From: Schmidtea nova
Taxonomy: Eukaryota
Reading direction: 5' to 3'
DNA length: 64,000 bases
Assembly: GCA_044892505.1 (NCBI GenBank)
Contig: CM097884.1
Span: 47,864,001-47,928,000, forward strand
A model generated the notes under the pieces. The model had not been told where the DNA came from. It was given only the letters and a program-made list of their open reading frames with translations, and did no database searches. Shown here in pieces: positions 3,054 through 43,886 of the stretch. Position 1 is the first letter of the stretch; each line of letters opens with the position of its first letter. The position numbers and the translations under genes are program-made.

Positions 3054-4260
3054 TCAACTCGCAACCAATTTGCTACTGGAATAGTGACCACAAATTGAAA
3101 ATAATTGACGTCTCGACATTTCCTGCCCACTCTTCAAGACAGGAAGCTCACTACCTCTTGTCCAAATCCGATCCATGTTACGCATTGTTATTTGTAATCC
3201 TAAAACTCTTGCATCATCGAACTTCTCTGGATCTTTCACTTCTAACCCATATTTCTGCAAATGATTTATAACATCCGAGACGCAAACTAATGACTGGTCT
3301 ACTATTATGTCGTCTATATAACTATCTGTCGCTTCAGCAATGTCACTTCGTAAACTCGACACCTTTTTTTTAAACACTAGACATAATCTTTGGGGCTACA
3401 TTCAACCCGAATCCCAGTCTAGTCAAATAGTAAAACTTATCGTCATAGCATACCTTTTGATACTTCCAACATTCTTCATCGAAATGCAACTGTAAGTAAG
3501 CATTCTTTAATTCGAGCATAATAACATCTCTACCTATTTTTCGCCATTGTCTCAATGATTCTCCACACACGTCACTTTGCCCAGTGTGACTCTTGACGAA
3601 CTTATTCAATTCTCGGAAATCAATAACAGATCGAACTTTATTCTTGTTCGGCTGATCCACTGCCATTAATGGAATCGTACCACCGACGCTTGATTCGGCC
3701 GGTACAAGCCATCCTCCCTCTATCCAACGCCTCATCTCTGCATCAAACGGTGCTTGAATATCGTTTGCCATCTTATAACAAGCAATCTTGTTCCACAATA
3801 TCGATGGTCCAGACTTCCATTTCCATTTGACGACCCATTTCTTGTCGAATCTAGCTTCGAAATTTTCGTCTATAATATTGATGAAGCTCGGAGAAGAACT
3901 TGCTCCAGTGACACACTTATCACTCAGCACACATACCTTCTCTTTCGAAAAAACGACTCCATCTGTACTAATCAGGAGACCCCCTAATCTTCCAAAAATA
4001 TCCATGCCCAGGATCATATCAATATCGTAGGGTAATTTTTCGAGAACCAGACAATTTACTCGTAAATCTATACCTCTAATCACCAAGTTTACCAATATAT
4101 CACAATAACACGACACAGAGGTTTCATTTGCTATCATCACCTCGTCCGTTCTTCTCAACTGTTTGCTTACCACGAAGCCAAAACAACAGATCTTGAGCAT
4201 CCGGAATCAATCAAAGCATTTACTTCTCTCCCATCCAGGTTAATTGTGATTATTTGCAAC
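3054..4260 (-). pseudogene. pol: Gypsy protease plus reverse transcriptase fragment
   Basis: DSG protease triad, ILGMD motif, RT blocks in ORF 3370-4200 and SYIDDII in ORF 3054-3377 after a frameshift. Confidence 0.88.
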
Positions 4261-4264
4261 GCCA

Positions 4265-4948
4265 TTACTGGTTCAATGGAGTATACACCGGCGTTAGTGT
4301 TACCCCGTTGTCGTTTTTTGAATTCTTATTTGAACATTCTCTAGATATGTGATCGGTGCCGTTACAAGACCAACACCTTGTACCAAACTTCTTAAAACAA
4401 CGTTCAGCTACGTGATCAATCTTATCGCAATGAGTACAACGTTTTACTTTGTTATATACAACGTTGACACATTCAATGTCTTGAGCTCTCGTATTCATCA
4501 TTGCCCGTGTTATCTGAACAATATCCTCCATTGGCATAATATCAATCTTTGGAGTAGCCTGCAAAAATCTGGACACGTCGTTAGGTAGTCCTACGACGTT
4601 CCTAACGGAATTCTCATTCACTCTTGCAAGTTTTGCATGAAATCTTAGATCGGCCAAAAATACATCCACTGATCCTCCAGTCCATCTACAATTTCTCATT
4701 TTTTCGTATTATAAAAACATACTTGGAGAAAAAGCTTTTTCCAATGCATCCTCGATTGCTTCAAAACTAGCCTTGTCCTTTTCTGATAAATGTTCGTAGA
4801 CGGCATATGCATCACCTTTCAAAAGAATAGGCATAAAAACTTCTATAGTTTCTATCTTCAACATCTTTACAATTGACTTGAGTCGAGCAAACCAGCTTGC
4901 AACATTGCCGGTTCCATCAAATTTTTCCAGATATTTCAAAACTTCCAT
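4265..4948 (-). pseudogene. gag: Gypsy gag, frameshifted near 4700
   Basis: ORFs 4709-4948 and 4265-4699 join into a capsid-like region plus knuckles CTHCDKIDHVAERC and CWSCNGTDHISREC. Confidence 0.85.
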
Positions 4949-7162: not shown

Positions 7163-7460
7163 TTATTCATCTTTATTGCAATGTTGATCTAGTTGATGTT
7201 TCGCAATTTCATAACTTTTATTAAAATTATTGATTATAAATAGACGACTGCATGTTCTATTTTCAATTCTTTTGTAATCAATCTTACATTGACTATAAAA
7301 TGGAAATGTGTTGTACACAAATGTAAAATATTGTAATGCAACTTCCCAATTACCATCTAAATAAATTAGATTTTGAAGATTGACCATGAATTTATTGGCT
7401 TGATTATCTGGATGTATTAGTGGACAGCTATTACTTGGTAATATAGTATAAAAATTCACT
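7163..7460 (-). pseudogene. Polinton minor capsid (penton-like) protein, N-terminal fragment
   Basis: FYTILPSNSCPLIHPDNQANKF...IYLDGNWEVAL matches the FYxxLPSN...WEVxL start of Polinton minor capsid proteins; paralogous to 28980 and 30691. Confidence 0.8.
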
Positions 7461-8435
7461 TTACTAAATCTTTTGATGATATCCATGATGAGTTTTGATA
7501 TCCATGCCACTTTACATAGTATTGTTTATCCTTACCCACCGTTTTAGTTTTTAGTATTTTCTGAATTCTAAATACAGTTGGTGGCGGAATAACTTGTAGT
7601 TCTTGCTCATAAAATTTCCCACTGACTTCATTATTGTCAGAGTCAGAAATAACATACATTACAGGATATTGACTAGTATTAATTTTCGATATTTGAAATA
7701 ACTTATCACTCCAATTACTAACAAAATTCTTTATGAATGGCGAAGCACTAATTTTACTAATTTGAACATGATCAATAATTTTATATTTCGGTTTCTTTAA
7801 TGTTTTTACTTGACGAGAAATCTTTCCAGTATTTTCTGATGAAACATCAACAGGTCTCAATCCATTTATACCTAGATGTGGAGAATGATAATAACTATGA
7901 ATTATTTTCGGCAATACATTGACCCATGTTTTATTACCCTGGTATACAAAATACTTTTTGAGATGATCTCGTAATGTTCGATTAAATCGTTTAGCATGAG
8001 GTGTTTTGAATTGAGTGAATACAGAGTAATAATTAATCCCGGCCAAAACTTCTTTAACTTTATTATTGTAAAATTCTTTACCTAAATTTATAATTAAAAA
8101 TGTATATAATATTTTATATTCTTACCCAAATCAGTTTGTAAATTCTTGGGATGTCCATCTGCAAATAATGTTTTGATTGCTATTGCCATTTTTATTTTAT
8201 TGCCATTTCATGAGCTGACTTTTTTTGATTGGAACAGTACGTGAAAATCTACTGAAGACATCGATACATGTCAAAATATATTTATATCCCTGGTTAGTTT
8301 TTGAATATGGAATCATTTCCATCAAATTCATTTGCCAAAAATCATTAATACCATATGTTTTAGATTCTCTTGTTGGAAATCTTTTCAACATTGATTTGTT
8401 TAGACTGTATGCTAGTTGACCTGATAACCACTTTT
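7456..8435 (-). pseudogene. Polinton retroviral-type integrase with chromodomain, split by a 44-nt intron (8082-8125)
   Basis: WQMNLMEM, YILTCIDVFSRF, LQTDLG^KEFYN, FNRTL, GKFYEQELQ, QYYVKWHGY. Frameshift near 8210; N-terminus truncated. Confidence 0.92.
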
Positions 8436-10310: not shown

Positions 10311-10444
10311 TAAAAAATAAAATTTTCTAGGGGGGCCTTGACCTATATATGACGGGGATACATCCTACTACTACTTAATCATCATTATTAATATTGTATG
10401 ATCATTGTCGTGATGATTATTACTACTAATTTTTAGTATTATTT

Positions 10445-13400
10445 TGGTGGGTTGTTGATCGTCAATATGACCTTGACGTTGCTATGGCTCTCATCAACAA
10501 CTCAACACATAAAACATTGAAATAACCATCTTGTTGCTCGTCACAATGTAACGTTGGTAATGCAACAAATGGGTGGGTATTCGCAATCAGTGAGCGTCGT
10601 CAATACGAAACTATGATTGACCGAATATCTCCTGGGTCCAAGGGCTACCGATAGAAGGTTTAATGCCAATTTTGTCCCTTCTTCAACGATTTATCTATAA
10701 GCATTCAAAAAATTTTATCGGAAATTCTACATAAATATTTTACATAACTATAAATTTATTATTGTATACAAGTAAATCATTCTAAGCATCAAGACACTAA
10801 CAAAACCTTAAATTTTTGCAAATATTATAATTTATGTTAATTATTAATTAGAGCATTCTAAAATAAAATTTTAATTTACATTTAAAGTAAAAATAAAAAT
10901 AAAAACTTTAATTTCTTAATTTACAAAAAATAATCTGATCTCTAATTTAGGGTTTTTCATTATTTTTAAATCTATGATTAATTTCTTCGGTTTAAATTAC
11001 CGACCAAATTCCATTTGTTTAAGTTTTTATTTGACCTAGAACAAATTCAAATGCCAACTAAATTCTCAAAATATCAGCTCGGAAAATGCCTACGAACCCA
11101 ACAAATCGTGCTCCAATATTCCATAAAAGCCCCAAAAAAAGGTTAATTTATCAACTAAAATTGATAAAATAATTTATTATTCTTATAGCATCCAAACACG
11201 ACAACCGGGAAGAACGGCTCTAAACCACTCTCAATCTGAATCACTCAATTTCAAGAAAACATCCGAATCGACAAACGTTCACTCTCCCATTCAAATTCCT
11301 CTGTCACCTCACTGGAATAATTTGGATATGAACGCATCAGTCTCACATGAATGAACTCACAACTCTATGAACTTTTTGTATTAAAATCCCTCTTCTCTAT
11401 GTGATGTTTAATAAAATAATTTTTTCCTTTTTTTTATTTTAATTAGTCGTTTGATTTTGTTTTCAGTAATATATGTTTTTTCTGAATGTTGTTAAAACCT
11501 TATAACAGATGAAGATAGATGATGTGGCTGAGAAATTTTTCGACAACCAACAAAAAAAATTTAGAGGTAGGATGCCGTAGGTGAAGGTAGTGATGAGTGC
11601 TAGGAAGTATATTATGGGAAGGTAGATTTCTGATTATAGTAATAAGGTGAGGCTTGTGAATAAAAGGTTTTGTGAATTTCGATGGGAATTTTGCATGAAT
11701 GTGAATTAATGATGGTAATATTCAGGGGAATTTGCGAGTTGGTATGTCGTGTTTTATGATGAAATTTTTATATGGCATGTGGTATGTTGTGATGATGGTA
11801 TGATTGTGTATAATATTATTATAGGTTTGACTGATTTCATTGTTACAGTGTTTGTGTGCGGTTATATGGTGGGTGACTGAAAACAATGGAGTGCTTGTGA
11901 GTGTGATTGGACGTGCGATGCCAACTAACTTGTCTGAGTGTAATTTTCGGTATGGTTTGCCTGTGTGTATATAATTGTTGAATGCTATTGAATGATACTG
12001 TGTATGTGTGTATATTGTATTTTATATGTATGTTACTGTATTATCAGTATGGGTGATGCTATTGAATGGTATTGGTGTGATGAATTGCAAATTTGAATTT
12101 GTATGTGGTTTTAGGGGGTATTTTATAAAATAATACATAAAATATTTTCAAAATTTAAATGATAACAATAATTTTTTAATAATTTTTATAAATTTTTAAA
12201 TTTATAATTTTATGAAAATAATAAAATTTCTAAATTTTTATAATATACATTTTCAGATTCGAATTTTTTTAATTTAAGAATATAGATATTAATCGTAAAT
12301 ATTTTCTATGAAATTTCGAAATTTTAGATTTTATAAAATGATAAAATTTTTAATATAATAATAATATTTTCGATTTATAATTTTTATGGGTTTCGATATA
12401 ATTTTTGATTTAAAAATTCTTTGTAATTTTATAAAATGACAAAATATTTTATATAATAACAATATTTTCGATTGGTAATTTTTATGGGGTTCGATATAAT
12501 TTTTGATTTACAAATTCTTAGGAAAATTTTTTGGTTCACAATTTTTCATTATAAAATTTTTGCAATATAATAAAAAGTAAATTTTTATTTTTTGATCAAA
12601 ACGAAATCCACATAATAATAAATTTTTATCCACAAATTTCGCAATCCAAATAAGAATTCAATCTAAAAAGTTTTATATACTGAATAAAAATAAAAGTAAA
12701 ATAAGTTATAAATTCTTCAAAGAATATTTTTCGACATCGAGTAAAGTGAATTTAAGTTTCGTTCGAGCATGAATTTCCCAACCAAAGTGCGCGCGAATTT
12801 TTCGGGACACTTCACTTAGGAACTTCAGGCTCCCGAAAACAAGGTTCACTGGAGAAAATTATTTAGATAATGAATGAGGTTCAATTCAGATCAATCAATA
12901 CTTGTCTTCATAATTCGTTTCATTTCGTGATCATTATATCAACTTTGAGCATTGTTTCAACGATTCTCTTTTCAATATCGGTTGTTAATATTCTGGATCT
13001 TGGATAAGGAGAAAAATCATAGCGAAAGTGAAGGCGAAGGAGGAGTAAAATGTTCTTGCACAAATTAAATTTTTATAATGGAAAAGACATTACTGGAGAA
13101 AATCATCTTTACGTTTATATGTGGTATCAAATTTTAATTATGAATATGTTAGAATTATAAATTCAGATAAACTACATTATTATAAATCAAATATCATAAG
13201 TATAACAATTTGCCCTTGGTCAAGCCACTGTTCCCCAGTTGGGATGAAGTGATCATGGATGTTTGGGCTATTCACCTGGACTCGGAAATATGGGCTGATC
13301 GATTACGAATCGAACCAGCGATCCGCTCAGGCTACTTCCACCCGATCGGCACAAGGCCAGAAACAGGCTTCAGGGGGTACGGAAGCAAAAAAATTATTTG

Positions 13401-14521
13401 TTTATTTAATAACTTTTATTTGGACTACTAAAATTTTTCAATTATGAGAATTTGTGATAAAAAAAAATAAATAAAAAAATTCATTAGATGAAATCCTATA
13501 TAATATTTTCATTATCAATATACAAATAATAAATCCCAAATAATAACAGTAAAAAATAACTAAATGAATCAAATAAAAACGGTGTCGACATGGGATGTCC
13601 AAAGGGCATGATTTTTTGGACCTCCCATACCGATAACGCATATATAATAAGATAAATATAACATAAAAATAAAATGAGGAAATCCTTACGCTCAGTGCGG
13701 CTTCCTAATGGGTTTTTCGGAAACAAAAATTGATTTTCTTGATTTTTTCGGTAAATTCTTGATGGGTCCGTTAACTGCGGCTCTCCTGATTAATTTTTTC
13801 TTTTTCAAATTGAAATTGAAATTCTGTAGATTTAGAAATACCAAAAATCTCAACCAAATAAAAAAAATTTCCACAAAAATTCTGATTATTGCCATTTTGA
13901 TGGCGGTATATATACCATCGATTTTGCGTTACCTTCACTAGTGTAATAAAACAAATTGTTCTAGAATTTTCTTTTTAATTTTTCTAAATTAATTCTAATG
14001 ATTTTCCAAAAATTAAATCCATATTTTTGTGTAATAATTTTTTATAAAACACAATTAATTTATTTTAATTCAAAATTTTTATTTTTGAATCGAAATTTGT
14101 TCGATTTGATTTAATTTACGATATTTCGATCAATATTAGTTCTTTTTATTGTTAATGTGAAATATTTTGATAAAATCACAATTTTCTGCTAAAATTTGGT
14201 TAAATATTTTCTGTACTGAGGTTTTATAACACAATTCTGTTCTTTATGGGCTTTTCAATGGGTTTTCCGCCTATTCTAACTTTCAAACGTTCTTCTTTTG
14301 ACGATTTTTAATTTTTCTCGAGATTTCAGTGTAAGGACTTGCAAATTTACAGCTAGCGCGTACTCTACTGGTTGATGTGTTTTGAGTCCACTTAACCTTT
14401 TGGTGTTTTCCACTTAATCGCTTGGATTTTTAATGGATGTTTGGGTTAAAACTGAATCTTGGGCGCTCTCTACCTATGGGGTTATCGCTTTATTAAAACA
14501 ATTTGTAGTTTTTGCCCAACA
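10445..14521 (-). mobile_element. Giant solo-LTR-like unit A1 (4077 bp)
   Basis: Ends TGGTGGG...CCCAACA, ATTT on both sides (10441-10444, 14522-14525), colinear with 51176-54920 in conserved blocks. Confidence 0.75.
11086..11354 (+). CDS. Putative two-exon 73-aa ORF inside unit A1 (intron 11142-11188)
   Basis: Splicing a 47-nt GT-AG intron gives an open frame MPTNPTNRAPIFHKSPKK...SHE*; a similar arrangement lies at the equivalent offset in A2. Confidence 0.3.
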
Positions 14522-14533
14522 ATTTCCAGCCTT

Positions 14534-16000: not shown

Positions 16001-16241
16001 CTACATACTATAGCATAGTTACTAAAGTGAACATTTGGAAGGATTGTTATTATTTCATTTCATATAACAGGGATGCTCAAACTGCGGCTCTTTAACATTC
16101 TTTTGTGGTTCAATAGTTTAATATGTAAATGAAATTTTATGAATTTTTTTTCACAACGCCTACGTTATTGTAATTAAGCTTAAATTTTTCATAAATAATT
16201 TTAAAAAGATATTTTTAAAAAATGCTTTTAGTCATTAATTA

Positions 16242-17565
16242 TTAGGTTGTCCAGAATAAAATCTCCGAATAATATATAATAATTTTAATTCATCATAACA
16301 TTTTTTATATAAAACATATTTCTTTATTTTAAAGTTCATTAGAAAGCGCTTTTTTTGAACTCAAATATTAACTACTAACAATTTAATTACTGAAACTTTC
16401 ATTTTCAAATAGAAATGTAGAATTTAGAAAATCATTATTTGAGAATTTTTTATTTATATGAGTGTAAATCTAAGAACAATTTATTTGAGGCGAAGAGGAA
16501 TATTAATAACGCTTTTGGGAGCGATACAGTTAATGAAAGAACTATTAGGCGTTGGTTTAAAAATTCTGATCACGGAGAAATTGATCTCGAAAATATGCCT
16601 CGTGGTAGACCCAATATCAAGCTGTTGGGAGAAGATTTACGTGAAGCTGTTGCTCAAAAATCAACAAAATCTGTTCGAGAACTTGCAATAAACCTGTTTG
16701 CCTCAATAATAACCGTTTATCACAATATAAAGACAATTAGTATAGTCAAAAAGCTTCAAAAATTGGTCTGACATGAATTGACTGAATTTCAGAAATTAAA
16801 CAAATTACAAACTTGCTTATCTCTTCAAGCATAACATTGAAAGTCATCTTTTCTTAATAATATTATTACCTGCAATAAAAATGGATTCAATATGATAATT
16901 TAAAGTGATCAGGAGAATGGTTGGATAAACATCAATGCCCAAATCAGTTTCCAAAGCCGGAAATACACCAAAAGAAAGTTATGCCCTCAGCCTGATGGTC
17001 TAAGTATGGTGTAATACATTATTGTTTTCTGAAAATGGGTAAAACAATCAATTCTGAAAGATACTGTGTAGAACTAGAAAAAATGCATGAAAAACTCACC
17101 ATTAGTCACCTTGCAATTGTTAATATAAAAGGTCAAATTATCCTGCATCATAACGCCAGACCTCATGTATCGAAAGTCACTGTAAAAAATTACACGACTT
17201 AGGATTTGAAGTTTTACCGCATCCACCTTATTTCCACCTTATTTCCACCTTATTTCCACCTTATTTCCACCTTATTTCCACCTTATTTCCACCTTATTTC
17301 CACCTTATTTCCACCTTATTTCCACTTATTTAGACATTTAAGTCTTTATATCAATAGCAGAAAATTCAAAGATTTGGAGGAGATAAAATCGACAGTTATC
17401 ACTTTCTTGGACTTCAGACATGAAACTTTTTTAAAGAAGGTATAGAAAAGCTCCCGCAACGATGGCAAGAGTGTATTAATGTTTATGGGTCATATTTTGA
17501 TAAAATAATAAATGTTTAAATATATTTGTATCCATTTTGCGGACATTCCATTCCCGACAACCTAA
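16242..17565 (+). mobile_element. Decayed mariner transposon (~1.3 kb)
   Basis: TIRs TTAGGTTGTC / GACAACCTAA with TA on both sides. Transposase remnants RNINNAFG, TIRRWF, HELTE, HQKKVM, LHHNARPH, HPPY, FHLF; many stops. Confidence 0.93.
17223..17331. repeat. 11-bp tandem repeat (CCACCTTATTT)x9 plus one variant, inside the mariner transposase
   Basis: Units counted directly. Confidence 0.95.
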
Positions 17566-18323: not shown

Positions 18324-18771
18324 AATTTTATTACGATTCGGACGTTTTGTTAGTTGTAACAACTTTTTATTTGAGCTGATCTATCTAGTTTTAGAAAGGT
18401 TTTATCGGCCCCCGTAGGAAGGGAAATATGTTATTCATTAAAACTATTGGGGTTGTCTTAAATTGGTGCAAAATAAGGTGAAATGCACAGAAAAATAACA
18501 ATTTACAAAAATTGAAAAAAATTTTAAATCAGTAATTTTTCGACTGAAATGGGTATGAGCAGATGGCATGTAATGAGGCGAATACGAGTATAATAATAAA
18601 AAATCAATTTGGGGTCACTAGAAAAGGATATTAAGAAAATAAAAATTAATTAAAAATAACATAAACTTTAATTGCCTAATGGAAAACTCGAACTGACAAC
18701 AAAATAAATAATTAAATTCTTTCCTAAACCAGCACAATAGCCAGCTATAGAGTAAACATAAATTTGTTGGG

Positions 18772-19235
18772 AGGTAAGTGCCGGTTTTGATACTATTTTG
18801 AATTTTTAATACTATTTTGAATTTTTAATACTATTTTGAATTATTAAAAATTATTATTAATTATTAATTATTATTAATTATTATTAATTATTAATTATTA
18901 TTAATTAACTATTAATTAATTATTAATTAATTATTAATTAATTAATAATTATTAATTTATTAATTAATTATTAATTTATTAATTATTAATTAATTATTAA
19001 TTAATTATTAATTAATTAATTATTAATTTATTATTAATTTATTAATTATTAATTTTTATTAATTATTATTAATTATTATTAATTATTATTATTATTAATT
19101 ATTAATTATTATTAATTATTAATTATTAATTATTATTAATTATTAAAAATTTTGAATTATTAAAAATTAAAAATAGTATTAAAAATTCAAAATAGTATTA
19201 AAAATTCAAAATAGTATCAAAACCGGCACTTACCT
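18772..19235. mobile_element. Foldback MITE (464 bp) with ~66-bp TIRs and 6-bp TSD GTTGGG
   Basis: AGGTAAGTGCCGGTTTTGATACTATTTTG... is exactly inverted at the right end; GTTGGG at 18766-18771 and 19236-19241; interior almost purely A/T. Confidence 0.9.
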
Positions 19236-20221
19236 GTTGGGATTATACATGATCGTGTAAAATAGGAGAAATGAAAAATGTACAAAATTAATAAAACATT
19301 AAATTCAAATTTCAAAAAGGGTAAAAATTCATTTTTACCGGGGTATAAAGTGGCAATCGATGGCAAATTGAAGGTTGAAAATGAATAATAATTTTAAATT
19401 AATTAAGGGTCCCTGGGAGGGTATAGAACAACAATACGAATTAATTAATTAATTGATCTCATTAATAATCTAATTTGATTCACCAATTATTATGGAAAGA
19501 AACACAAATTGTCAGATTGATCAAGCCTAAATATTGCTTGTCGAAGTCAGAATTAGAAACTCGTAGTAGTAAGGAATTGGTATAACAAAAGTTAAGTATA
19601 AGAAAGAATAAAGTATAAGGAGAGTAAGATAGTGAAACTTAATCGTCAATCAAATTTTACGTTATCTAGTTGTATCCTTTAAATTATCTATTCTAAAATC
19701 TATTTGAATCGAAGGGTTTAAGAGAATTTGTTATTTGTCAAATAGTTTTAATTTGTTGAATCTTTGTTATTATCTAAAAGACACAAAAAGTCAAAACAAA
19801 AATTAATTCCCATCGAAACTAATAACCCAATAAATTAATAAGGAAAAGTTGGTGAGTTAAAAGAGAGATGTCGCCTGGCCGGTTATAATTGTTTTTAGAT
19901 AATTTGCGCTTGAATAGTTCCATTTGATTATTAGATTATCTAGAAAGAGACAGCGAGAACCATATATAAAGAATTACAATATTTTTCATTTTGCCAGTTG
20001 ATCGAAGAAAGAAAATCAAAATATTTGTAAAAGCGGTGTAGAGTTATAGCACCCCTTTGAGTTATCTAACTTGTCATAAATTTAAAGAAGTTCTGATCAA
20101 ATCCAAAAGTGTTGTTACGATATTGTTGAGAATTCTTTAGAGTTTTAAATAAATTTACTGTTTTGGGTGTCTTTATTTAATTAGCATAAAAATTCAGGTT
20201 TTGATATCAACTTTACTGAAG

Positions 20222-23200
20222 TGTTAGGCCAGCCAAATAGGGCCTGAATGCATATTAATGATAATTAATAAGTATATAAATTAAATAAATAAGGATGAAT
20301 TACCCTTAGTTAGAAAGAGATCTGCGAAATAAAACAAATTAATAAAAGCAAAGGTAAATAATAAGAGAATATTTTAACAGTAAGTACCTGCGAGTTATCA
20401 TTGAGAGCAGGGAGGGTGAGATATCTGAAAATAAATACATTTAAATTATAAAAAGCACGAATAATAAAAGTACATAAATGTAATAATCACATGTAAAATT
20501 ATATTAAGAATAAAAATACCTAAATGAAACATGAACAATTAATTGCAAAACAAACAATTACCCGAGAACGCAAGCCACCTGCGAAAGGGAAAACGAATAA
20601 AATAAAATAAATATTTTATAAAAAAACTTGCCCAATGGGAATGGAAGCAATTCCTGAAAAGGGAAGTGAAATAAATTATAAATGGATTAGAAAATAAATA
20701 AATATCTATCAATTAGCTTATGAATAAAGCCCTCTGATTGGCTGATTGAAATCCCGGATTAGTATAAAAACAGGCGTTCAATTCAGTATCATATACCTTT
20801 TTACACTATATTTTTTAGAGATTTCATTGTGATATTTTGCGATTTGCGATTAATTGTATAACAGTGTAATCAATTTCAATAAAGGTATATATTAAATTGT
20901 GTTTGTTTTATTATTTGATTATAGTATTATTATCGGTTAACCTCTCATTTTCCTAATATCATTAAGAGCACATCGTGATGGTCTTGCAACCTAATGGGCG
21001 AAAATTGCCTTCTCGTTCCGACTTTTTTTAGAAAAAGGGCGATAGGTCGACCCGGTGCTAAATACAGGGAGGGGTCCACATAGGATATTCGATATGTTTG
21101 TTTCATTAAATTGTTTATAAATGATAAATTTGGTCCCACCTGCGTAGTATCAAAGAACGTGAGCAACCCTAGGGCATTTGTTTGTTGACAGACGTTTAAA
21201 TCATTGTGAAAAGATAGGACCCCACATATATAGAGCATTTGATGCCGCAGTCATATGGCTGACAATAAGCATAAAGAATTCGTTTGATCGATTTTGTGAT
21301 ATTATCATGAAATGGATTTCCACATGCAACGTACAACAGAATGTTAAGAATTATTGATACAAACCATAGTGTAAGGATTTTAGATAAGTATGTTTGTATA
21401 AACACATGACAGTGATGGATAGAATATTGGCTAGCAACGCCTGTAATTTTCATGGCGATCGGAGTTTGATCTGACAAGGACTATAGTGGTTCCGCACAGG
21501 AGGGATAGCGCGGCGGAGAATTTATAATTAAAAATTACAGAGTATTGGGAAAGTTTAGTAAGCACAGCGGAAGTCACAGATGTAGATCGTACATACCATG
21601 GCAATTCTAGCGAAACCTAGGCATCAACTGCACATTTGAAATAGCGCCAGCACTCATGTTAATGGAGGTAATTTGAAAAAGGAATTGGGACTTCCTCTGA
21701 AATAAAGTCAATTGTGTTAAATTACCGTAGTGTCATTTTGAGAGAAATCATAAGAAAAGGGACAAAAGCTGAATGCTCAGAATTCGATTGAGTTGTTTAC
21801 TGAGTAATATCAAGAGATTACCAAATCGGCAACGTCGAATAATTGTCATTCGCCTGAATAAACAAAATTTCAATGCTAATATATAACCGGCGAACACACC
21901 GTGGTAGAATAAATTCAAACAATATAGTTTCGACATTTTTAGTTTTGTAAAATAAATCAGACTGTCAACATGTACTATAATTCAAAGGACACACCCCAAT
22001 TAACCTCCTTTATTTGGCGGTAGGGTGAATGTTTAATTTATTTTATTTTAATACAACAAAATTTTGGAAACTTTAACAAATGGATTAGCTAAAAACCATA
22101 CGAAGAGTACAACAGATCCAACAAATAGTCTATTTTCGAAATGGAAGAATCGACAGGCCGGCTCTCTGACCACTCAAGGACCTGCCATCAAATGTCCTCG
22201 ACGACGTCAACCACCACTTGTAGATGTGGCGAAATCAGTTTAAATCACCAGTCTCATTCGGGATATGGGAAAGAAAAGGCGAGGAGATATGGTATGAAGG
22301 TGAACCTTGATGGTCTTCCACCGAGATGAAACCCGATGTCCCCAAATGGTTCATAGTCATTCGAGACTAATCAAACGTGACACGATGGCTCGTATTTTTC
22401 CACAACATTAAAACCCAAGAGCTCAACACCCTCGGATTCATCTTATTGGAGAGACCTCAACTCTTGGTTACTGGGAAACTCCATGGATAGTCCAACTTAC
22501 CATTCAAGTTCAGAAAGAATAAAGAAAGCTTTCGAAGTGGGCAACCCAAATCCGAATTCATGAGATATTCCTCTACAAGGGTTATCTCTGATGGAAGCTC
22601 AACCCAATGATATATGCTGCAGATGGAATCGCTACAGCGAAAGCCGAATATACGCAAGATTGGATCTGCGACTGGAGATACAACGAGCCGGAGTCTATTA
22701 GTGATTCAAGTATAAATTGACAACCAATAACATTCCTGTGATTTGTGTGTTGTTTATCTTAGTTGTTAATCTACTTTTGATAGCTACGTGACGAAGTTTT
22801 GATGTTTGAGTTTGATCGATGGTGATGTGGTTGGTTCATATTTTCCAAATTGATTGGTTTGCTTGATCGAATGTGTGCCAGGTATACGAAGTTAATAAAC
22901 CAGGTTTTTTGCGATTACCTGAGGTATAGTAGGTGCTGAGGACAGAATAGACTAAATTTTAGAGTAGTGATGATTGACACGTAACATGTATATTTTTATG
23001 TCGTAGATGCAACGGAATTTAAAAAAGACTTAAGAATTGCAACAGCAGATTTCCAGACTTGGAGTCACGAATAAATCTTTAACTAGGAGGGTTGCTCATC
23101 TAAGGCGACTGAATGAGGACCTATACCAAATTGGTTCTCCCCATCAGCAATCCAAATTGCAATGCAAGAATGGACAGGTTGAATCCAGCCACAATTGAGT

Positions 23201-23913
23201 AGGGAACGGAATTGTCGGCGACCCGACTAGAATTAAATCAGTGCCTTAGAACAGTTTATAACGCAAGATCTCGCAAATCAAATTCGGGCAATCACGTTGG
23301 AGAAATGGACGAACAGAAGATTATGTTCAAGTGATACCCAAACGGAACTTGCATTCGATAACGATGTGGATCCTTCTATGAGTACGGAAAGCAACCAGCA
23401 CGTGAACGTTAGGGACAGAAAATGAAAAACGAAACAGGTTGGGAGCGAAACGGAGACGAGAACGCCTAGCATTCGAGGAACGGCTCAATATTCAATTAGA
23501 TTTACTGAGTGGGGTGACAGAAAGGCAATTTCTGGATCTGATCGAACGTGAGATGTTGAATAAATAAACATGTATTTTCAAACTGTGTTCAGTGTATGAT
23601 TTCAATGAGTTATAAATGATTTGTGTTGTTTGATGAAGTTATTTTACTAAATGGTAATTTTAGATAATTATTTCATATAAAGGGACAAGTGTACGACGAA
23701 GAAAGGTCTTCTATCGACCGAACGAACCAGTATGGGCAAGAGGGGAATAGTAACTACCTAGGTTGCTCACCTGCCCTTTTGACATACACCGGTTGGTACA
23801 GTTCAGGCATGAAGTACAATTAGGGGTATCTCACGGGCACCATTACGGGGTTTAGAATTTTATGTGGGTGGAGTTGCCTTAATACAAACATCAATAAACC
23901 ACCACACCCAACA
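20222..23913 (+). mobile_element. Giant solo-LTR-like unit B (3692 bp)
   Basis: gaag|TGTTAGG...CCCAACA|gaag (perfect 4-bp TSD). Carries the shared motif at 23707-23770, CCAAT/TATA-like boxes at ~20737-20770 and decayed ORFs. Confidence 0.65.
20737..20770 (+). promoter_or_regulatory. Candidate Pol II promoter of unit B (inverted CCAAT plus TATAAAA)
   Basis: ATTGG at 20737 and TATAAAAA at 20763, ~540 nt from the unit start; a TATA-like palindrome lies ~610 nt from the equivalent end of A1 and A2. Confidence 0.35.
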
Positions 23914-25753
23914 GAAGTAACCTAACAAACATATAACAAACAAATCTTCTTAAATTTCCAATAGTTACATTATTTGTAATAGTTATTGAATTTCTATATT
24001 TGCAACAGCCATCATACATTATTCCAACGGTTCTATCCTCTTTCTCCCATCTAGTATACCCGTAAATGCCTCACTGGACACATTCACATTGGTAATGCAT
24101 ATTGATTGTCGACGGGCTTAGTTGGTAGTGAGCGTGTTTCTTGCACTTTACCTCCAAACCGTGCCTCCTGATTATCTGTGTTAATAGAAGACATGAAATA
24201 TCGCTATGGGAACCCTGCCTTGCGCTTTCTGTAACCTCTCAAGACGACACTGTTAATTATCCGTTAAAATCGGTTCATTTCGCTGTCCCGTACATTATTC
24301 ATTAAAAGCCATTAGAGGGTATGAAAGCAAAATTATTTATTTATTTAATAACCCGACACTCATACTGGGGCATTTAAATTTTTTGGGATTTCAGAAAAAT
24401 GTTCAAATAAAACTGTGTTAATATAAAATAATATATATAAAATAATATAAAATACAAACCATATAAAACTTAAAAATTTAAATTGAGACTAAAACTAATT
24501 AAAAATTAATTAAAATTAAAAATCAATATTTTGAGGGTGGAAGAGGTATGATAGAGTAGCAAATAAAACGCTCAAGATAAATATATTAAATATAATTTGG
24601 CGAGGGTCCCAAAGTTAAGGTATTTTAAAAATAAAAGTAATTAAATATTTGAGAAAAATTAGATAACCATTCTTGTTCAATAATAACAATTCTTGGGAAC
24701 CACCACTGACAACATACATAGTCCAAAAAATTCAATTTATTTTTGGGATTTAAACAATAGTTAGATGTGAAACAAAACGCTCTATAAAAGGAGATACCAA
24801 AATACGACAAGCGCCAGAAAATAATAGAGAATTAAGAAGCAAACAGAGTCAGAACTTGTTATTGAATTAATGATTGAGAATTTTAAAAAGAAGAATTGTT
24901 CCTTCCCAAAGCATTATCAAATAGTTCATATTTATTAAATTTATCCATATTTATTGACTGTCAATATCGATTAGTTTTACGATTGAGTAATTGTATTCGC
25001 GTAATTTGATAAAAATGACACGCACAGTTAGCTAATTAATTCCTATCTGTAACATTTAAATATAAAACCAACACTTCCATACAAAAGTGGTTTATAGTGA
25101 GTAAGGAGAAGTGAGCGCTCTGACACAAGCCAATTATCTCTAACCTATGTAATAATTTTCCAGTGACCCCTCTGAGATTTTTTGGAGGGGTTTACAAAAA
25201 TTATGTGAAACTACATTGCTGTTATCACTTTATATATTATAAAATACGTTATATTCAGAATTTTATTATGTAACCGATGATTTAATAATTTTATGCTTTA
25301 ATCGATGCCGAAATGCTTAATTTTTTTTAATTTAATTTTTCAAGTTTTTGCAAAAAGTATAAAATGTATTAATTTTTTCGAAATTTAAAAAAACTTTATG
25401 GAGAATTTAAAGCCCACCGACAATTTACAAGTAAAAAGGGTCGATTCCCACAAAAATGGTCGGAATTCAATAATTTTTATACCAATCTACTGAGAATGAA
25501 ATGGAGAACAAAAAAAGATTTTAAAAATTAAAAAATGAAAGTTTTGTCTCATCCATTATAATTTTACACTTTAAAACATTACTCCTGCAATTTCCAAAAA
25601 GTAAAGATTGGTCAGAATTCAATAATTTATATACCAAAATACTCACAATTTACCGATCAACAACAAGAAATTCATAAAAATTATAAAAAACAACAAAAAC
25701 ACAAAGTACTTTAAAAATAAATCTTTATTCAAGAAAATCTAGTTTTTCGACAA

Positions 25754-26689: not shown

Positions 26690-27260
26690 TTTATCAAAAG
26701 GTTGGCCCATTGGGAGTGGGAAAACATTATTTGTATGTTCATTATTACAATCTAACATGTTTAAATAGATATTCAATAACATTTATTGGCACAAGGGAGT
26801 CGATGAAGAAAATGCATTGACTCAAGATCAGTTTTGTAAATTATAAATAACCATTATAAAATGGTTTGATAAAAATTGATCATCTAGATTACAAGTTGAT
26901 GTTATAATTATCGATGATTTGCATCAGGAAGCCAATAAAGAAAAGAATTTCAACAATTTATTTACAAATATAAGTAGACACTTGGGTGTTACAGTTATTT
27001 ACATTACTCAAAATTTATTCCATCAAGGTGGTAGTTATAGAACCCGAAATTTAAATGTACAATACTTGGTTATATTCAAAAATCTTTGAGATGTAACAAC
27101 TATTTATTTTATTGTAAGACATCCTTACCTTAATGATAGAAAATGTTTACTTGATTCATTTCAAGACGCAACTAAAATTCCACACGGATATTTTTTTTCG
27201 ACTATACACAACAATGTCCTGATGATTTTCGTATAAGACCTGACATTTTCAATAAAAAGG
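26690..27260 (+). pseudogene. A32-like genome-packaging ATPase
   Basis: Walker A GSGKT at ~26713-26727; Walker B IIIDDL; LFTNISRHLGVTVIYITQNLFHQG; RNLNVQYLVIFKN. Confidence 0.9.
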
Positions 27261-27479
27261 TATAACAGTTTATAAACAAAAATGAAATTGTAAAATTAAT
27301 TTATTAAAATGTCATTAAAAAACGTCATTGTTCAACCCGTTATTGGTAAACCTGATAAACAACAAGAAATATTAAACAAGGTTAAATAGATGTCATTAAA
27401 GAAGATTTCATTAAAAAAAGAAGACACAAATCAAGAAATCGATAAAAAGAAGAAGAAATGAATTACATTATAAGCAAAA

Positions 27480-27790
27480 CAAAGTTGCAAAAATTTGATA
27501 ATAATTAAAATTGAACGCAGTGTACCTTATTTTAATGCCTTGATAAAGGCATTAATAAACGTATGACAATTTTACAGGCTTTTCCCCCATTTGTTATTGA
27601 TGATTTTCTTGAAGTTATTGTTAATGTAATTTGTGGTAATGTAAATATTAGTAAAGCCAAAAAATATCTTTAATCTCTCATCAATACTAAAAATCGTGAT
27701 CTTCTATGTAGAGTTATTTATAAACAAAATGGTGGTTTCTTATGTACATTAATTTCAATAGTATTATCAGCTATAAGTGCATTTCATTGT
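27480..27790 (+). pseudogene. Small conserved Polinton protein upstream of the integrase (core-protein-like)
   Basis: EVIVNVICGNV and YKQNGGFLCTLISIVLSAI resemble the QxGGFL-hydrophobic motif of small Polinton proteins. Confidence 0.6.
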
Positions 27791-27886
27791 TAAATTCATA
27801 AATTGGTGCTAAAGTTTCAATAGATATTAACATCTTGTTGTGACAATGAAGGAAATATTATCCAAAAAGAGCAAACCAAAAATAAA

Positions 27887-28973
27887 TTGAAAAAGATTTG
27901 GACAAACCCAAAAGATCCTGGTTGGTTTGCTGGGGTAAATAAAATTTTAAAAAGAGTAAATAATTCAAAGAAAGATACACAAAAATGGTTATCTGATCAA
28001 TTGGCATATAGTTTAAATAAACCAATGTTTAAAAGATTTCCTACACGAAGTTATAAAACAATTGGTGTTGATGATTTATGGCAAATGGATTTAATGGAAA
28101 TGATACCTTTTTCAAAATTGAATAAAGAAAACAAGTATATTTTGATTGTTATTGATGTATTTAGGCGCTATGCACGTGCAGCTCCAGCAAAATCTAAATC
28201 TGCAAATGAAATGGCTGAAGCTATAAAAAACTTTATTTGTAGATGGGCAACCTCAAAATTTGCAAACTGATTTGGATAAGATTTTAATTTAATTTTAATT
28301 AATTTTAATTTAATTTTAATTTAATTTTAATTAATTTTAATTTTATTCTAGGTAAAGAATTTCATAATAGTAAAGTTAAAGAAATTATCAAGGTTATTAA
28401 TCATTACTTGGTATTTTCATAATTCAATGCAGCTGTTGTTGAAAAATTCAATCGAACTCTGAGAGATAAATTGAAAAGATACTTTTTTTTAAGGAAATAA
28501 ATACATGTTTTGCGTAAATTGATTTATAGTAATAATTATTCTCAACGTAAAAAAATACAGGGAAAGTGACCAATTGATGTTTATCCTACAAATAATATGA
28601 ATAGATAGTTATCTGAACAAATAAAATCAATAACTAAAAAACCGAAATACAGAGTAGGGGATCATATTAGAATCAGTAAAATCAATGGATTCCCTTTTAG
28701 AATTTTGACAATAATTGGAGCGATGAAGTTTATCAAATTTTGAAAATCTATAAAAATCAGAAACCGGTCATGTATTTTATTACCGATTCTGAAAAAAAAT
28801 GATATCAGTGGAAAATTCTATGAACAAGAGTTACAAGTCATTCCAGTCCCATCAGTATTCAGAATTCAAAAGATTTAAAAACCAAAAATGATTGGAAATA
28901 TAAACAATATTATGTTCAACGGCATGGATATGAAAAACCAACTTGGATATCTAGAAACCAATTGATTAAATAA
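27887..28973 (+). pseudogene. Polinton integrase with chromodomain, with a degenerate intron at 28276-28351
   Basis: LWQMDLMEM, YILIVIDVF, QTDLG^KEFHN, VVEKFNRTLRD, GKFYEQELQ; clearly homologous to 7456-8435. Confidence 0.92.
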
Positions 28974-28979
28974 ATATTA

Positions 28980-30697
28980 TGAAAGAAAACTAGTTTTCTA
29001 TGATTTTGCCTATTAATGCGTGTTCTCTTATTTATTTTAATAATGAAGCTAGTAATTATAATGTAGAATTTCAAGATCCGATTTATTTAAAAAATAATGA
29101 CGATATGAAAGTTTCTTTGATTGAATTTACTTTTGTGTATAATTTGTTCCCGTATTATAGTAATTCTTTTATTCAAATTGTAAAAGAAATTTAAGAAATC
29201 AATTATTTGAGAATCAAAAATGTAAGTAATGTATTCGAAGTTTTAAATTCTCAACCTAGTTCAGATACTGATGTATTTATTGAAAAATATGAAAATTTAT
29301 TGTTTGTTTGCCCACATGTTCCATTTAAAATTATATTTCCAGATCTCGAACATGTAAAATGTTATGGATTGGATAGTTAAACAATTATTAGTGAAAATGA
29401 TCATTGTCGATTAAAATTATTAATAATAATAATTATTGTGAATAGTTAAGGTCAATTAAGGGTTATGTTGTGATGAAATTTATTTATGATAAAGTATATG
29501 TTATTTATTAGTATATATTATTTATGTAGTGATTGTTTGTATTGGAAAAATGAAGGGCCCAGCCGAGTCACCAGTAAAAGTGTGTCGGGACAACTTGGGT
29601 GTATGTTGTGTACGTGCTTGTGGGTGTGAGTGTGTGCTTGCCTGTGTAAGAATGCAGAATCACAATTTTTATTATAAATAACAACTTTTAATTTAAATAA
29701 CAACTTTTATTATAAATAACAACACGTACTCGCGATTTTGCTGGGGATTAATATTTCATTCGTTAAATAAAAATCTTTTTCTTTTTGATTTCAATCGGTT
29801 GATAATTTGTTTTTGTATCTTCGAGAATTTTATAATTCGTTTCTTTAATTATTTTTTCTATTTGTCTTGGTTAATTGTCACTTTAATAATTCGTTAATTT
29901 CATATTTTCATTTCATATCTCCACTCTTTCATAATAATCGATTTCTTTTATTTTTGCGTTTGCAATTTCTATCGTCTGATACTTTTATGAAACTTTTACT
30001 GATATTTTCTTTAATAAATTCTTTATAGGCTTCTTTAAAACTGGCTAAATTAATTTAGTAAGCTGAAGGCATCTTTTAAAATCATTTAAATTTTTTTAAT
30101 CAATTTTCTTTAATTTTTCAAATTCATATAGTAATTTATATTACTATAGGAATTGATTTTTTATTTTCATAATTTTAATTTATTATGTTATTTTTTTAAG
30201 TTTTAAGTTAACCATAAAAAAGTGATAATAATAAACACAAGCATCACACAAAACACAAATAATTAACAACTAAAGGGATTACTATGTTCCCAAAACACAA
30301 TTTATCATAAAAATTGACATTTACTATAATAGATTATGACATTAAGACCGTTAATTATCATTATTTTCAAAAAGAATTATTCATTACGACATTACCTAAA
30401 TTGAAAGGATATTTAATGAAAATAAATCTATCTCCATTCAAAGAAATGAAACTTGTCAATAATGAATTGGTTATTGGCGATGTACGAGTTCCCCTGCTAA
30501 AATGAATTTGGATAAAAAAAATATGACTAGGGTGAAGTTGTATAAATTGAAATAAAAAACCCAATGTATTTGCCAATTTCAACATCAACTATAAACAACA
30601 TTGAAATCAATATTCGTGATGACAGTGGAAAATTAATTAAATTTTTAAAAGAAACAAACTTACATTTGACTCAGCATTTTCGTAAAATAAATGAATA
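28980..30697 (+). pseudogene. Minor capsid/penton-like gene 1, interrupted by unrelated sequence (~29520-30300)
   Basis: N-terminus ILPINAC...VSLIEFTFVYN; C-terminus VIGDVRVPLLK...IEINIRDDSGK...HFRKINE*. Confidence 0.72.
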
Positions 30698-31703
30698 AAA
30701 AAGATTTTTATGTTAATTTACCAAGTAATTCTTGCCCATTGACCCATCCTAATAAAAAAGCTGGAATATTTAATGTGGAATATCAAAATCCAATATATTT
30801 GGATGGTAGTTAAGAAGTTGCTCTTATGGAGTTTACTTTTGTGTACAATGAATTTCCATTTTATAATAGTTCAAGAATAAAATTTACTAGAAGCAATTTA
30901 CATTCCAGTTATGAATATTTCAATTTTAACAAAGAAAAGAATGAATATGAAATTAGTCACGATTCTAATTATTATTTGATGTACATTGACGGCCATATTT
31001 TAAGTGTAAATTTTAAATATTTTCCATTTCAAATAATATTCGATAGTGTTGAACAATCTCAAAAATTATGATTTAAAGAAAAAGCTGTGAATTTTGATAA
31101 TGAATTAAATAAAATCGTAATTAATAATAAAGAATTTGTTGATACTATACGATTTACTATAACTTATAATTACTCGGTTGAATAAACTGATAAATTTAAA
31201 GAAGATTTGATAATAAATGGTCTTACTCAATTATCGGATCAAATTGAGAGTTTTTATCCTCATCCATTTAAATTGATTGATATTAAAGAAAGAAAATTAA
31301 CTAAATTAATTCTTGAAGATGATATCAATTGTGTTAAATTTAGTAGAAATTTGACCAATTCATTAGTATTAGTAGATCAAGAATTTATAGAGAAAATTAT
31401 TGATGGCTTATATTATCCACAAGTCCTATATTTTCATCTGCAAATTTTCATCTATATGGATATAATTCAACCAATTCTTGTTAGTGACATGTCAGTTCCC
31501 CTATTGAAATGTATTTGGGTTGAAAAACATAGAAATGAAGATTAAGTACAAATTGTTGTGAAAATACAATGTACTTGCCTGTCAGTTCCACATATATAAA
31601 CAATATAGAAATCAATATTCATGACGACACTGGAAAAATAGTTAAATTTACAAAAGAAGGCAAGACTTACTTGACATTACATTTCCATAAAATAAATGAA
31701 TAA
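30691..31703 (+). pseudogene. Minor capsid/penton-like gene 2
   Basis: FYVNLPSNSCP...EVALMEFTFVYN...YMDIIQPILVSDMSVPLLK...IEINIHDDTGK...HFHKINE*; internal stops. Confidence 0.8.
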
Positions 31704-31990
31704 TACAAATATTATCAGTTTCTATAGCAACATTCAATCAGGTCGAGAATTAGCATATCTTGTAGATAAACAGTATAGTACTGGTTGGTTGAAAACAATA
31801 GGAAGATTTGCATTACCAATTCTCAGACATTGGAAATTTCGGTATGAAAACTGCCAATGGCGTGTTAAATAGTAATTCAAAATTTTTACCTGCACTAAAG
31901 TCCAGTGCCATTTCTGAAATTAAAGGTTGGTTACCCGATGTAATTCATCATTTGCCACAAGTTTTTAATAGTGACTGATTTGTTTAACGA
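31696..31990 (+). pseudogene. Small Polinton virion/core-like protein
   Basis: IQSGRELAY...QYSTGWLKTIGRFALPILR resembles the QxGxG...RxAxPxL proteins found upstream of Polinton major capsid genes. Confidence 0.55.
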
Positions 31991-32050
31991 AAATAAAATT
32001 AAACGAAATGGCAGAATTCTTAAGCGTAAAAAAATATGAAAAAACATCGA

Positions 32051-32636
32051 CCCGGCCTACCAAAGGTCTCCAGTCAGTAGTTATTTACATATTGCAGCTT
32101 ATAATGATCATGTGCAGTACAAATATGAACAGCAATAGGAACAAATGTCACCAACACCTTCAACATGCTGCATGCGCACATGTACACATACGCACTCACA
32201 CACAGACATTTACAGAATATGACTTCTCACACCAGGCACACATCAGTGATATCAGTGAGTCATGTTAATGAAGGATTGTCACTTTCTTAGAATTTGACTA
32301 CTCACACTAAAAGCACAACAGTGATAACAGTGAGTTCGCAAAAAGACTCCCATTGCCCGTAACGCCTTCGAACTGGAAACACATCTGCATGAGGAAGGGT
32401 CACACATCTCCACTGATTCACTGGCAAAAGTGGTCGATACAAGGCCTAAACGAGTGCGCCTTGTTATCCAGATGAAAGGTAATATAATGAAGTACTAACC
32501 CTCTCAGCACTACAGACATTCAGTATTCGTGTGTGTTTGTGACATTTGTTCCCCTTCCTGTTCATTAGAAGCGGTTCATTATAAACAGCAATATGTAAAT
32601 AACTGCCTGACTGGAGACTTTTGGTAGGCCGGGGTA
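32051..32636 (+). mobile_element. Internally deleted Tc1 derivative of the 43887-45331 family
   Basis: Same TIRs (CCCGGCCTACCAAA...TTTGGTAGGCCGGGGTA); left part matches ~43890-44160, right part ~45041-45331. Confidence 0.92.
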
Positions 32637-32676
32637 TAAACAAAAGAATGAAAAGATATGGAACAATATTTGAAAA

Positions 32677-33480
32677 ATGATTAACGCAAAATCTGAATTA
32701 TGTGTTTTGAACAGACCATCTCTACAAGAAGTGATTGAACAAGGTGCATTTGAAGATTTTTACCAAACAAATTTCAATACAGATCCTGGAACATCATCTA
32801 TTCAATTTTACATCAACGGATCTCAGACTGAATATTTAGATTTGAATGATATTTAACTATCTCTTCAGGTCAAAGTTGTAAACAAATCTAGTGAAAATTT
32901 GCGAATGGATGCTGATGTTACTCCCAATAATTTCTTTTTCAAACTCTTTTAAAAGAAGCTGTATAAATGTTTAATTCTACAAAGGTTGAAGGAGGAAATG
33001 ATACATTTACACACAAAGCCATGATTGAAACTATTTTCAACTACAATAATGATACAAAACACACATCTTTAACTCCAATGGGATAAAATGAACATGACCT
33101 TACTAGAAAACATGGATTGCAAAATCAAAGCCATTTTCAATTTGTTCTCAATTACATTTCTATTTCATGGAAGAACCCAAGTATTTATTACCAGATTTTA
33201 GTGTTCAAATTAAATTGACAAGATTAAACCTAGCCTATAGTTTAACATGCACAAAAATTGAACCTAAAATTGAATTATTAGAGGCAAAATTAATGGTTAG
33301 AAGAGTTCGAGTTGAACCATCAGTTTTGGCTGGGCATCAAATTGGACTTGGTACAAGAAATGCAATTTATCCAATAAAAAATATGGAAGTTGTAGAATTT
33401 TCATTGCCAATGGGTTCTTCATCATTTTAAAATGAACAAATCTTTGATTAGGGGCCATTACCAAACTTTATTCTTGTTGC
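32677..33480 (+). pseudogene. Polinton major capsid (double jelly-roll) protein, 3'-truncated
   Basis: AKSELCVL, EYLDLND, KAMIETIFNY, YLLPDFSVQIKLTR, AKLMVRRVRVEPSVL, AIYPIKNMEV. Confidence 0.88.
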
Positions 33481-39018: not shown

Positions 39019-39465
39019 ATGGGAAAGTTGAAGCGCAGGATTCTTAATTTAGAAAGTAATTATTTCTCGCCAGCCGAAATGAAAGCGACAAAAGATAAAT
39101 TATCTCGTGCCATCAGGGTCATCGAAGACCAAAGAATTGAATTAGAGGCCATCAAAATAGGGTTAAGTAATTGTCGAAAGTTAATTACTCAACGATTTAT
39201 AGCTGAAAATCTGAAGAACCTGCTTAGGTCAATGGCATTATCTAATTGGTTTCCAGTATCATACCAGATTGAGGAGAGTACGAGTAGCATGACCAAGGAG
39301 ATAAATTTAACGACAAGGAAAAGATGGAAGACCCATGGACAACGTCGCATTCGTGCAAAGCAACGCTTAGAGGAAGAAAAGACGAAACCATCAAAAAACG
39401 GAAAAATGACATCCTTTGCAATTGATGCATTAAATAAAACTGTTGTAATTGTAATATATGATTAA
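39019..39465 (+). CDS. 148-aa basic coiled-coil hypothetical protein carried by unit D
   Basis: Intact ATG-initiated ORF, heptad-like N-terminal half, R/K-rich C-terminal half. Confidence 0.45.
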   Translation: MGKLKRRILNLESNYFSPAEMKATKDKLSRAIRVIEDQRIELEAIKIGLSNCRKLITQRFIAENLKNLLRSMALSNWFPVSYQIEESTSSMTKEINLTTRKRWKTHGQRRIRAKQRLEEEKTKPSKNGKMTSFAIDALNKTVVIVIYD

Positions 39466-43174: not shown

Positions 43175-43886
43175 GAATTTTATTATATAGCAATAATAAA
43201 AAGATAAATTTCCGTCTGTATAAAACGCAATATCAGGAAATAAATAATTAATAATGGCTGTGTCCAAATATCGTGTAACTAATAAAAAAATTATTTTACA
43301 AAATTATTTAATACATTATTTGTTTTAATTTCCTTTGCTGTATACAAACGGAAATTTATAAGCAGAGAAATTTTACGTGACGATTAAGAGACTTTTGTGT
43401 GTAAGTTGGGCAGGTGTAAATAGATCCGGATGTATTTATTATCCATTTATTTAGCTGACACGTGCATCTGGCTGCATGTCACCTCGAATGCTTTACGCAT
43501 TTATTTGCATTCGAATTGAAAATGGTGTATACCATTTATATTCGGCTGTAGTTTCAATTAATAAAACAATTCATTTACAAGGAAATAAATTAGATATTCA
43601 AAGTAAAAGATTAGTCATTAGTTATCGAACTCCAGTCAGTAAATCACACCCATTATTTTTTACGAGTATTTTTCATTTAATCATATAAATAAATGGTGTG
43701 AAATTTGATAGAAGAAAGTTTAAATATGAGTAGAAACTTGAAATTCAAATACCCTTATTAAATAATATTATTGTGTAAATAATTTGATTTTTGATTTATA
43801 TTAAGTGTTATTAACTTTTCATTTTTGACTGCTCAAAGTTTTTTTATCACGATTATTTACCTTTTAATTTAATAGTTCATTGAACA

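Follow-up and report, generated by a model that had tools for sequence, protein, structure and literature searches.

The 4,077-bp unit at positions 10445-14521 (copy A) of the window, by which we mean the whole 64,000-nucleotide stretch of DNA analysed, is probably a solo LTR left by a giant, Burro-like retroelement of Ty3/Gypsy type, with the colinear unit at 51176-54920 (copy B) being an LTR of a member of a different subfamily. Giant multi-kb LTRs are of an already known kind, and a solo LTR is the ordinary product of a known process. What is probably new here lies to the right of copy B: a separate gene for a SUMO-like–protease–ankyrin protein within an array of accessory reading frames, each led by a splice acceptor.

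Boundaries and target site of the LTR copies

The two copies and their immediate flanks are as follows.

10441-10444, + strand: left target-site duplication (TSD), ATTT
10445-14521, + strand: LTR copy A, putative solo LTR, 4,077 bp
14522-14525, + strand: right TSD, ATTT
51176-54920, + strand: LTR copy B, 3,745 bp, lacking a TSD and probably still joined to its own element
54930-54939, + strand: G5-CC tract 9 nt after copy B, with a weak 7-nt likeness to the tRNA-Pro primer site of Cer1

Upon checking against the sequence, the coordinates, the TG…CA ends and the ATTT flanks were exactly as the initial annotation had claimed: copy A starts with TGGTGGG, ends with CCCAACA and has ATTT on either side. 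The TSD was 4 bp, as claimed, and not 5 bp; this length rests on one case, with two copies (A and B) available. Such a 4-bp flank match is expected by chance with a probability of 0.0085 for random 4-mers of the window, or 0.023 given the frequency of ATTT. The short terminal inverted repeat ascribed to copy A is present at just 6/7 nt. Colinearity with copy B was also confirmed, as self-BLAST blocks stopped at both shared ends. Ungapped identity between the copies was 47/50 and 46/50 nt just inside the two ends and 13/50 and 9/50 nt just outside them; that is, homology running past the proposed ends, which the initial annotation had named as evidence against its reading, was not found for the A/B pair. 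The right flanks of the two copies are unrelated (30/100 and 81/100 shuffles scored as high), and the left-flank match is low-complexity (4/38 control windows scored as high). The TG…CA ends, the sharp boundaries, the 4-bp TSD and an LTR-like promoter layout (described below) together support the solo-LTR reading. A full element would have inserted at a 4-bp staggered cut, duplicating ATTT, and recombination between its two LTRs would then have lost the interior and left copy A as a single LTR.

It is unlikely that copy A looks solo because the assembly merged the two near-identical LTRs of a complete element and omitted its interior. Such a collapse would mimic a solo LTR and retain the TSD, short reads cannot span 4-kb LTRs, and the scaffold is gapped, with 822 N in total in the window. 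However, none of these gaps lies within or at copy A, and solo-LTR formation is generally known to be common, especially with long LTRs. Fractions of 0.49-0.54 of the words of copy A were present in four sequencing runs of one study, for which no RNA run was listed. The exact LTR end motifs had 0 matches in viral contigs and 0 in metagenome contigs. The GC content of the window is 29.6%.

Copy B has the same ends as copy A, and its flanks are TCGT (left) and TAAA (right). The expectation of a 4-bp TSD at other copies failed here, a fact that the initial annotation did not mention and one of the kind that it had itself listed as refuting. We infer that copy B lacks a TSD because internal sequence is probably still attached to it, so that the other half of the TSD would lie outside the window. 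Copy B would thus be one of the LTRs of a giant Gypsy-type element, the interior of which would begin at 54921 and run out of the window. Neither a polypurine tract nor a canonical primer site adjoins copy B on either strand, and no tRNA genes were found in the 64-kb window.

The copies are in direct orientation, and the distance between them is comparable to the size of giant elements, which might suggest that A and B bound a single 44.5-kb element as its two LTRs. This is very improbable. It is contradicted by the flanks, as the outer ones differ (ATTT vs TAAA) and copy A has its own TSD. In addition, a length difference of 332 bp and a replaced segment set the copies apart, the sequence between them holds Polinton, mariner and Tc1 relics as well as a TIR gene, and the scanned ORFs of at least 62 aa (65 of the 116 listed short ORFs) gave no gag-pol match.

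Patchy conservation within the LTR

The internal organization of copy A is as follows.

10445-10745, + strand: conserved 5' terminal block, 93% identical to copy B (ungapped, first 301 bp)
10847-11907, + strand: variable segment not alignable with copy B, putative U3 module swap
12328-12519, + strand: 98-bp tandem repeat, 2 copies in A
13208-13390, + strand: conserved GC-rich block, 52% GC, 92% identical to copy B, ending in a splice-donor-like GT
13891-13965, + strand: putative core promoter and R

The variable segment measures 1,061 bp in A and 674 bp in B and is essentially unalignable; therefore, it appears to have been replaced and not merely to have drifted. Each copy carries its own tandem expansion, the counterpart in B having an 85-bp unit in 2.9 copies (52686-52932). 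The last 649 bp are 91.5% identical without gaps, and the AT-rich repeat block 87.5%. The initial annotation had described GC-rich blocks as conserved and AT-rich spacers as drifted. The first part agrees with the 92% identity of the GC-rich block; the second does not apply throughout, as some AT-rich parts are well kept (94/100 columns in two 3' windows of 14-21% GC). The two LTRs of one insertion begin identical and then decay evenly. A and B diverge in patches, with blocks of 91-93% identity beside an unalignable 1 kb; therefore, different subfamilies are the likelier source than two LTRs of one insertion, and the pattern would fit LTR subfamilies evolving under selection.

The RNA fold signal was nothing unusual, with z-scores of +0.57 for the GC-rich block and -1.79 for the 5' block. 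Searches against Rfam gave 0 matches at the gathering threshold and otherwise chance-level matches only, and the GC-rich block had no Pfam match. That block was considered as a coding exon and rejected because copy B carries a stop codon and indels in the same frame.

At the start of the 3' conserved block, what we take to be a TATA-like motif (13907), an initiator-like A (13937, 30 nt on) and an AATAAA (13945) follow one another, and this layout is kept in copy B (TATA-like at 54306, AATAAA at 54343). On the + strand, this gives a predicted long U3, short R and 550-bp U5. The promoter reading is not unique, since both copies also retain another TATA-like hexamer near 10750.

Several shorter resemblances to the LTR were noted in the window. 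At 24307-24389 (+), approximately 45 nt match the end of the GC-rich block, including the donor-like GT and an AT tract; 0/60 sequences scored as high in both control sets, and this is perhaps a relic of a distant LTR family. A 15-nt match at 35018-35032 was considered as a third LTR end and discarded, since 8/60 Markov controls scored as high (0/60 shuffles did) and the block profiles missed it. Further CCCAAC(A)-TA(AA) junctions resembling the right end of copy B were observed at 35026, 35646 and 38119, where a chance origin is possible.

Accessory genes to the right of copy B

To the right of copy B lie 8 kb of minus-strand ORFs, the nearest of which ends 335 bp from it. Five stop-to-stop ORFs span 6,942 of 8,091 bp.

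55256-56050, - strand: ORF, 264 aa, with a single predicted membrane segment (203-219), YAG 17 nt before the ATG
56217-57041, - strand: ORF, 274 aa, with a single predicted membrane segment (197-213), YAG 3 nt before the ATG
57137-57712, - strand: ORF, 191 aa, 50% E/K/Q/R, coiled-coil-like, YAG 3 nt before the ATG
58003-59550, - strand: ORF, 515 aa, 47% E/K/Q/R, coiled-coil-like, YAG 1 nt before the ATG
59894-60106, - strand: short ORF, 70 aa, perhaps a fragment of a broken gene, YAG 2 nt before the ATG
60257-63319, - strand: ORF, 1,020 aa from the first Met, SUMO-like–retropepsin–ankyrin, YAG 6 nt before the ATG

In the 1,020-aa protein, the SUMO-like stretch lies at approximately 62653-62507, the retropepsin at 62353-62078 and the ankyrin repeats at 61624-61352. 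Pfam searches matched RVP (E 1.7e-5) and Ank_2 (E 6e-11), both above the cut-off. The SUMO-like domain PF11976 was matched below the cut-off (E 7.5e-4) on an excised 83-aa piece before the protease; two PDB matches (E 0.5 and 1.4), one of which is SUMO, cover the same stretch. Atlas matches, all below 0.9 and taken as leads only, were to ubiquitin/SUMO-like clusters (0.81-0.82) and, for the 274-aa ORF, to TNF-receptor-like membrane proteins (0.76-0.82). The 515-aa ORF is Smc-like by composition alone and had no Pfam match. Single-sequence AlphaFold models reached pLDDT values of 34 and 44. A 155-codon coiled-coil-like ORF was also observed elsewhere, at 38998-39465.

No close relative of the 1,020-aa protein was found among 6,684 candidates. 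Another search matched 2 of 2,336 candidates, P0001 and P0002, which were rejected as relatives because they are generic ankyrin proteins. No related locus was found in metagenome contigs (63 candidates) or viral contigs (3 candidates). Among representatives, 149 of the best 150 of 2,309 matched the ankyrin stretch; the remaining one was P0149, a 2,855-aa Gypsy polyprotein.

Within the window, the element of copy B shows a protease only, with no gag, reverse transcriptase (RT), RNase H or integrase. The Ty3/Gypsy-type origin proposed in the initial annotation is nonetheless supported by the position of copy B beside retropepsin-bearing genes with Burro-type domains. As no RT or integrase lies in the window, we infer Gypsy or Burro membership from these accessory domains, and the element of copy B is a putative member of the Burro family. 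We also considered whether the unit might be a non-autonomous DNA transposon, or some other dispersed repeat bounded by TG…CA; a rearrangement would then have removed the TSD of copy B, and the ORF cluster would be an unrelated neighbour. Copy A has no coding link to any retroelement enzyme, no clear primer site is present, and the window is full of unrelated transposon relics, all of which would suit such a repeat. We regard it as improbable, however, because the terminal inverted repeat is so short, both ends of copy B are intact, and the adjacent intact ORF carries a retropepsin together with Burro-type domains.

Splice acceptors in front of the accessory genes

A YAG splice acceptor lies 1-17 nt upstream of 6/6 start codons in the cluster, with the AG ending at 63326, 60109, 59552, 57716, 57045 and 56068 on the minus strand. 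Within 6 nt, a YAG was present upstream of 5/6 cluster ATGs, in comparison with 33/206 other minus-strand ATGs of the region and 271/1,824 ATGs in the first 51 kb. Shuffling of the upstream 40-mers gave p values of approximately 2e-4 for 5/6 or more within 6 nt and 1.6e-3 for 6/6 within 20 nt; these distance thresholds were chosen after looking, and the 70-aa sixth ORF was noticed after the first five. A T-richness-filtered acceptor test (5/5 vs 8/63) was biased by coding context and was replaced.

The gaps between the stop-to-stop frames are 92, 100, 287 and 670 bp, the last of which holds the 70-aa ORF. The gaps of 92 and 100 bp are near the peak of approximately 100 bp for operon gaps in Macrostomum, as given in the accessible text of PMC8629364. 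An AATAAA follows 3/5 long ORFs and is absent from the two shortest gaps. The cluster thus combines the marks of an operon, namely co-oriented genes, short gaps and an acceptor before each ATG, which suggests an operon-like cassette that may be resolved by spliced-leader or common-leader splicing. Because the genes are intronless, tightly packed and acceptor-led, they would probably be carried on a single precursor RNA, with splicing adding a leader to each of them. The leader could be joined in trans, as at the SL1 site of Cer1, or in cis from an upstream donor, and these two modes are indistinguishable from DNA. Upstream of the accessory genes, at 63694-63712 (-), a purine tract ending in G6 is followed by a donor-like GTAAAT and a 22-codon ORF; it is a candidate leader exon end.

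No title in the literature searched describes an acceptor-led array in an LTR element, and the primary Burro paper may describe one; the accessible text of PMC6880638 holds no precedent. One extended proposal is a new giant Gypsy lineage with 4-kb LTRs and six or more accessory genes in an antisense operon, the single precursor of which would be resolved into separate mRNAs by host spliced-leader trans-splicing. We consider this proposal doubtful; if true, the retroelement would combine an operon of the worm style with host-modulating genes like those of viruses. The separate acceptor-led genes permit a direct RNA test of which leader is joined at the six predicted sites.

Orientation of the element

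With U3, R and U5 read on the + strand, copy B would be a 5' LTR, the accessory genes would be antisense and gag-pol would lie beyond 64000. We lean slightly to this orientation over the minus strand because of the promoter layout on the + strand and the G5-CC tract 9 nt after copy B. The same element reversed is a serious, if less probable, contender: copy B would then be the 3' LTR of a minus-strand element, and the ORFs would be sense accessory genes after pol, which, as in complex retroviruses, would depend on spliced subgenomic RNAs for their expression. This contender is a form of the best explanation and leaves the solo-LTR call for copy A unaffected.

Every ORF points to copy B and has an acceptor, as the reversed orientation would predict, and P0149 offers a parallel. 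This polyprotein has RT, RNase H and integrase, a fusion glycoprotein that precedes pol, and three proteases, one of which is an extra copy after the integrase; a membrane-anchored tail also follows the integrase. The post-integrase protease is the best pairwise match to the protease region of the 1,020-aa protein (E 7e-7). However, all three proteases of P0149 score nearly alike (E 7e-7 to 2e-5), and the weak likeness between the C-terminal tails of the two proteins was rejected, as 55/2,000 shuffles scored as high. Moreover, no polypurine tract precedes copy B on the minus strand, and the promoter/polyA layout reads on the + strand. P0149 resembles the element of the 1,020-aa protein in having extra retropepsin domains outside the usual position, and resembles Burro in its giant-element design with a fusion protein before pol. 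It differs in that its identity to the 1,020-aa protein is approximately 24% in the protease region alone, with no ankyrin or SUMO-like match. No locus related to P0149 was found in viral contigs (6 candidates).

Comparison with known giant elements

Giant animal LTR elements, with their many extra domains, have been described mainly from dugesiid planarians. Burro LTRs are near 5 kb. LTRs of 4 kb exceed the default length limits of LTR finders, and such families and their solo LTRs are therefore easily missed. The initial annotation had called a length of about 4 kb far beyond that of typical animal LTRs; the measured 4,077 bp bears out the length, but giant Gypsy elements with multi-kb LTRs have already been described (PMC6431247).

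Burro, a planarian giant Gypsy family, is known and abundant (PMC11410931, PMC13309565, PMC10558129, PMC13238120). According to the accessible text of PMC6431247, Burro elements carry PF11976, ankyrin and Smc motifs, and their interior reaches up to 25 kb in a total of more than 30 kb. The elements in the window share with Burro/GYPSM1 the multi-kb terminal repeats (here 4,077 and 3,745 bp), an AT-rich host genome with Polinton relics, and the SUMO-like PF11976, ankyrin, protease and coiled-coil accessory domains, with PF11976 below the cut-off and the coiled coil assigned by composition here. Accessory ORFs upstream of ORF1 have also been reported for Burro/GYPSM1 (PMC6431247). In Burro, however, these domains sit in one polyprotein with gag and pol, whereas here the SUMO-like, protease and ankyrin domains have a 1,020-aa ORF of their own, with no intervening env and no RT following them. 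The polyprotein of Burro/GYPSM1, of approximately 5,000 aa, also has MATH, BCL2 and BIR motifs and an env in frame between gag and pol, none of which occurs in the 9 kb visible here. Conversely, the two small membrane proteins and the acceptor-led ORFs found here are not mentioned for Burro in the accessible text of PMC6431247.

Ogre, a plant Ty3/Gypsy element of the Tat lineage, has LTRs of 1.9-6.5 kb and 1-2 extra ORFs (PMC6431247). It shares long LTRs and extra ORFs with the element described here, which differs in being an animal element with six accessory ORFs. Cer1 of Caenorhabditis elegans is a Gypsy element with an SL1 trans-spliced subgenomic mRNA and a tRNA-Pro primer site with a G5-CC core; it differs in having a single trans-splice site, no array and a primer site that directly adjoins the LTR (PMC3315495).

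Other elements in the window

The one clear host gene of the window is an ARM-TIR gene at 41241-43028 (-), which has no intron over 595 codons and whose 5' end is lost in an N gap. Its best named matches were mollusc and annelid proteins (32%), and another match reached 45%. The host is an invertebrate animal, and its AT content together with the Polinton relics would suit a triclad flatworm. A hAT-like relic, recognized by eye, and a Tc1 element lie near this gene. A Tc1-type element with a DDE_3 ORF occupies 43886-45333, with an internally deleted copy at 32051-32638, and a mariner relic lies at 16241-17560. Decayed Polinton/Maverick-like relics were observed at 7163-8435 and 26880-33430, in opposite orientation and 68% alike, with matches to integrase, chromodomain and A32-like ATPase. 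A broken small Gypsy-like gag (CCHC) with protease/RT fragments is present at 3370-4708 (-). A stretch at 18765-23913 runs from TGTTGGG to CCCAACA without a TSD and holds a smaller LTR-like unit near 20222-20960 in addition to decayed sequence; it is possibly another nested retroelement. Finally, 18772-19235 is a fold-back element with long inverted arms, an AT microsatellite core and an apparent 6-bp duplication, GTTGGG.
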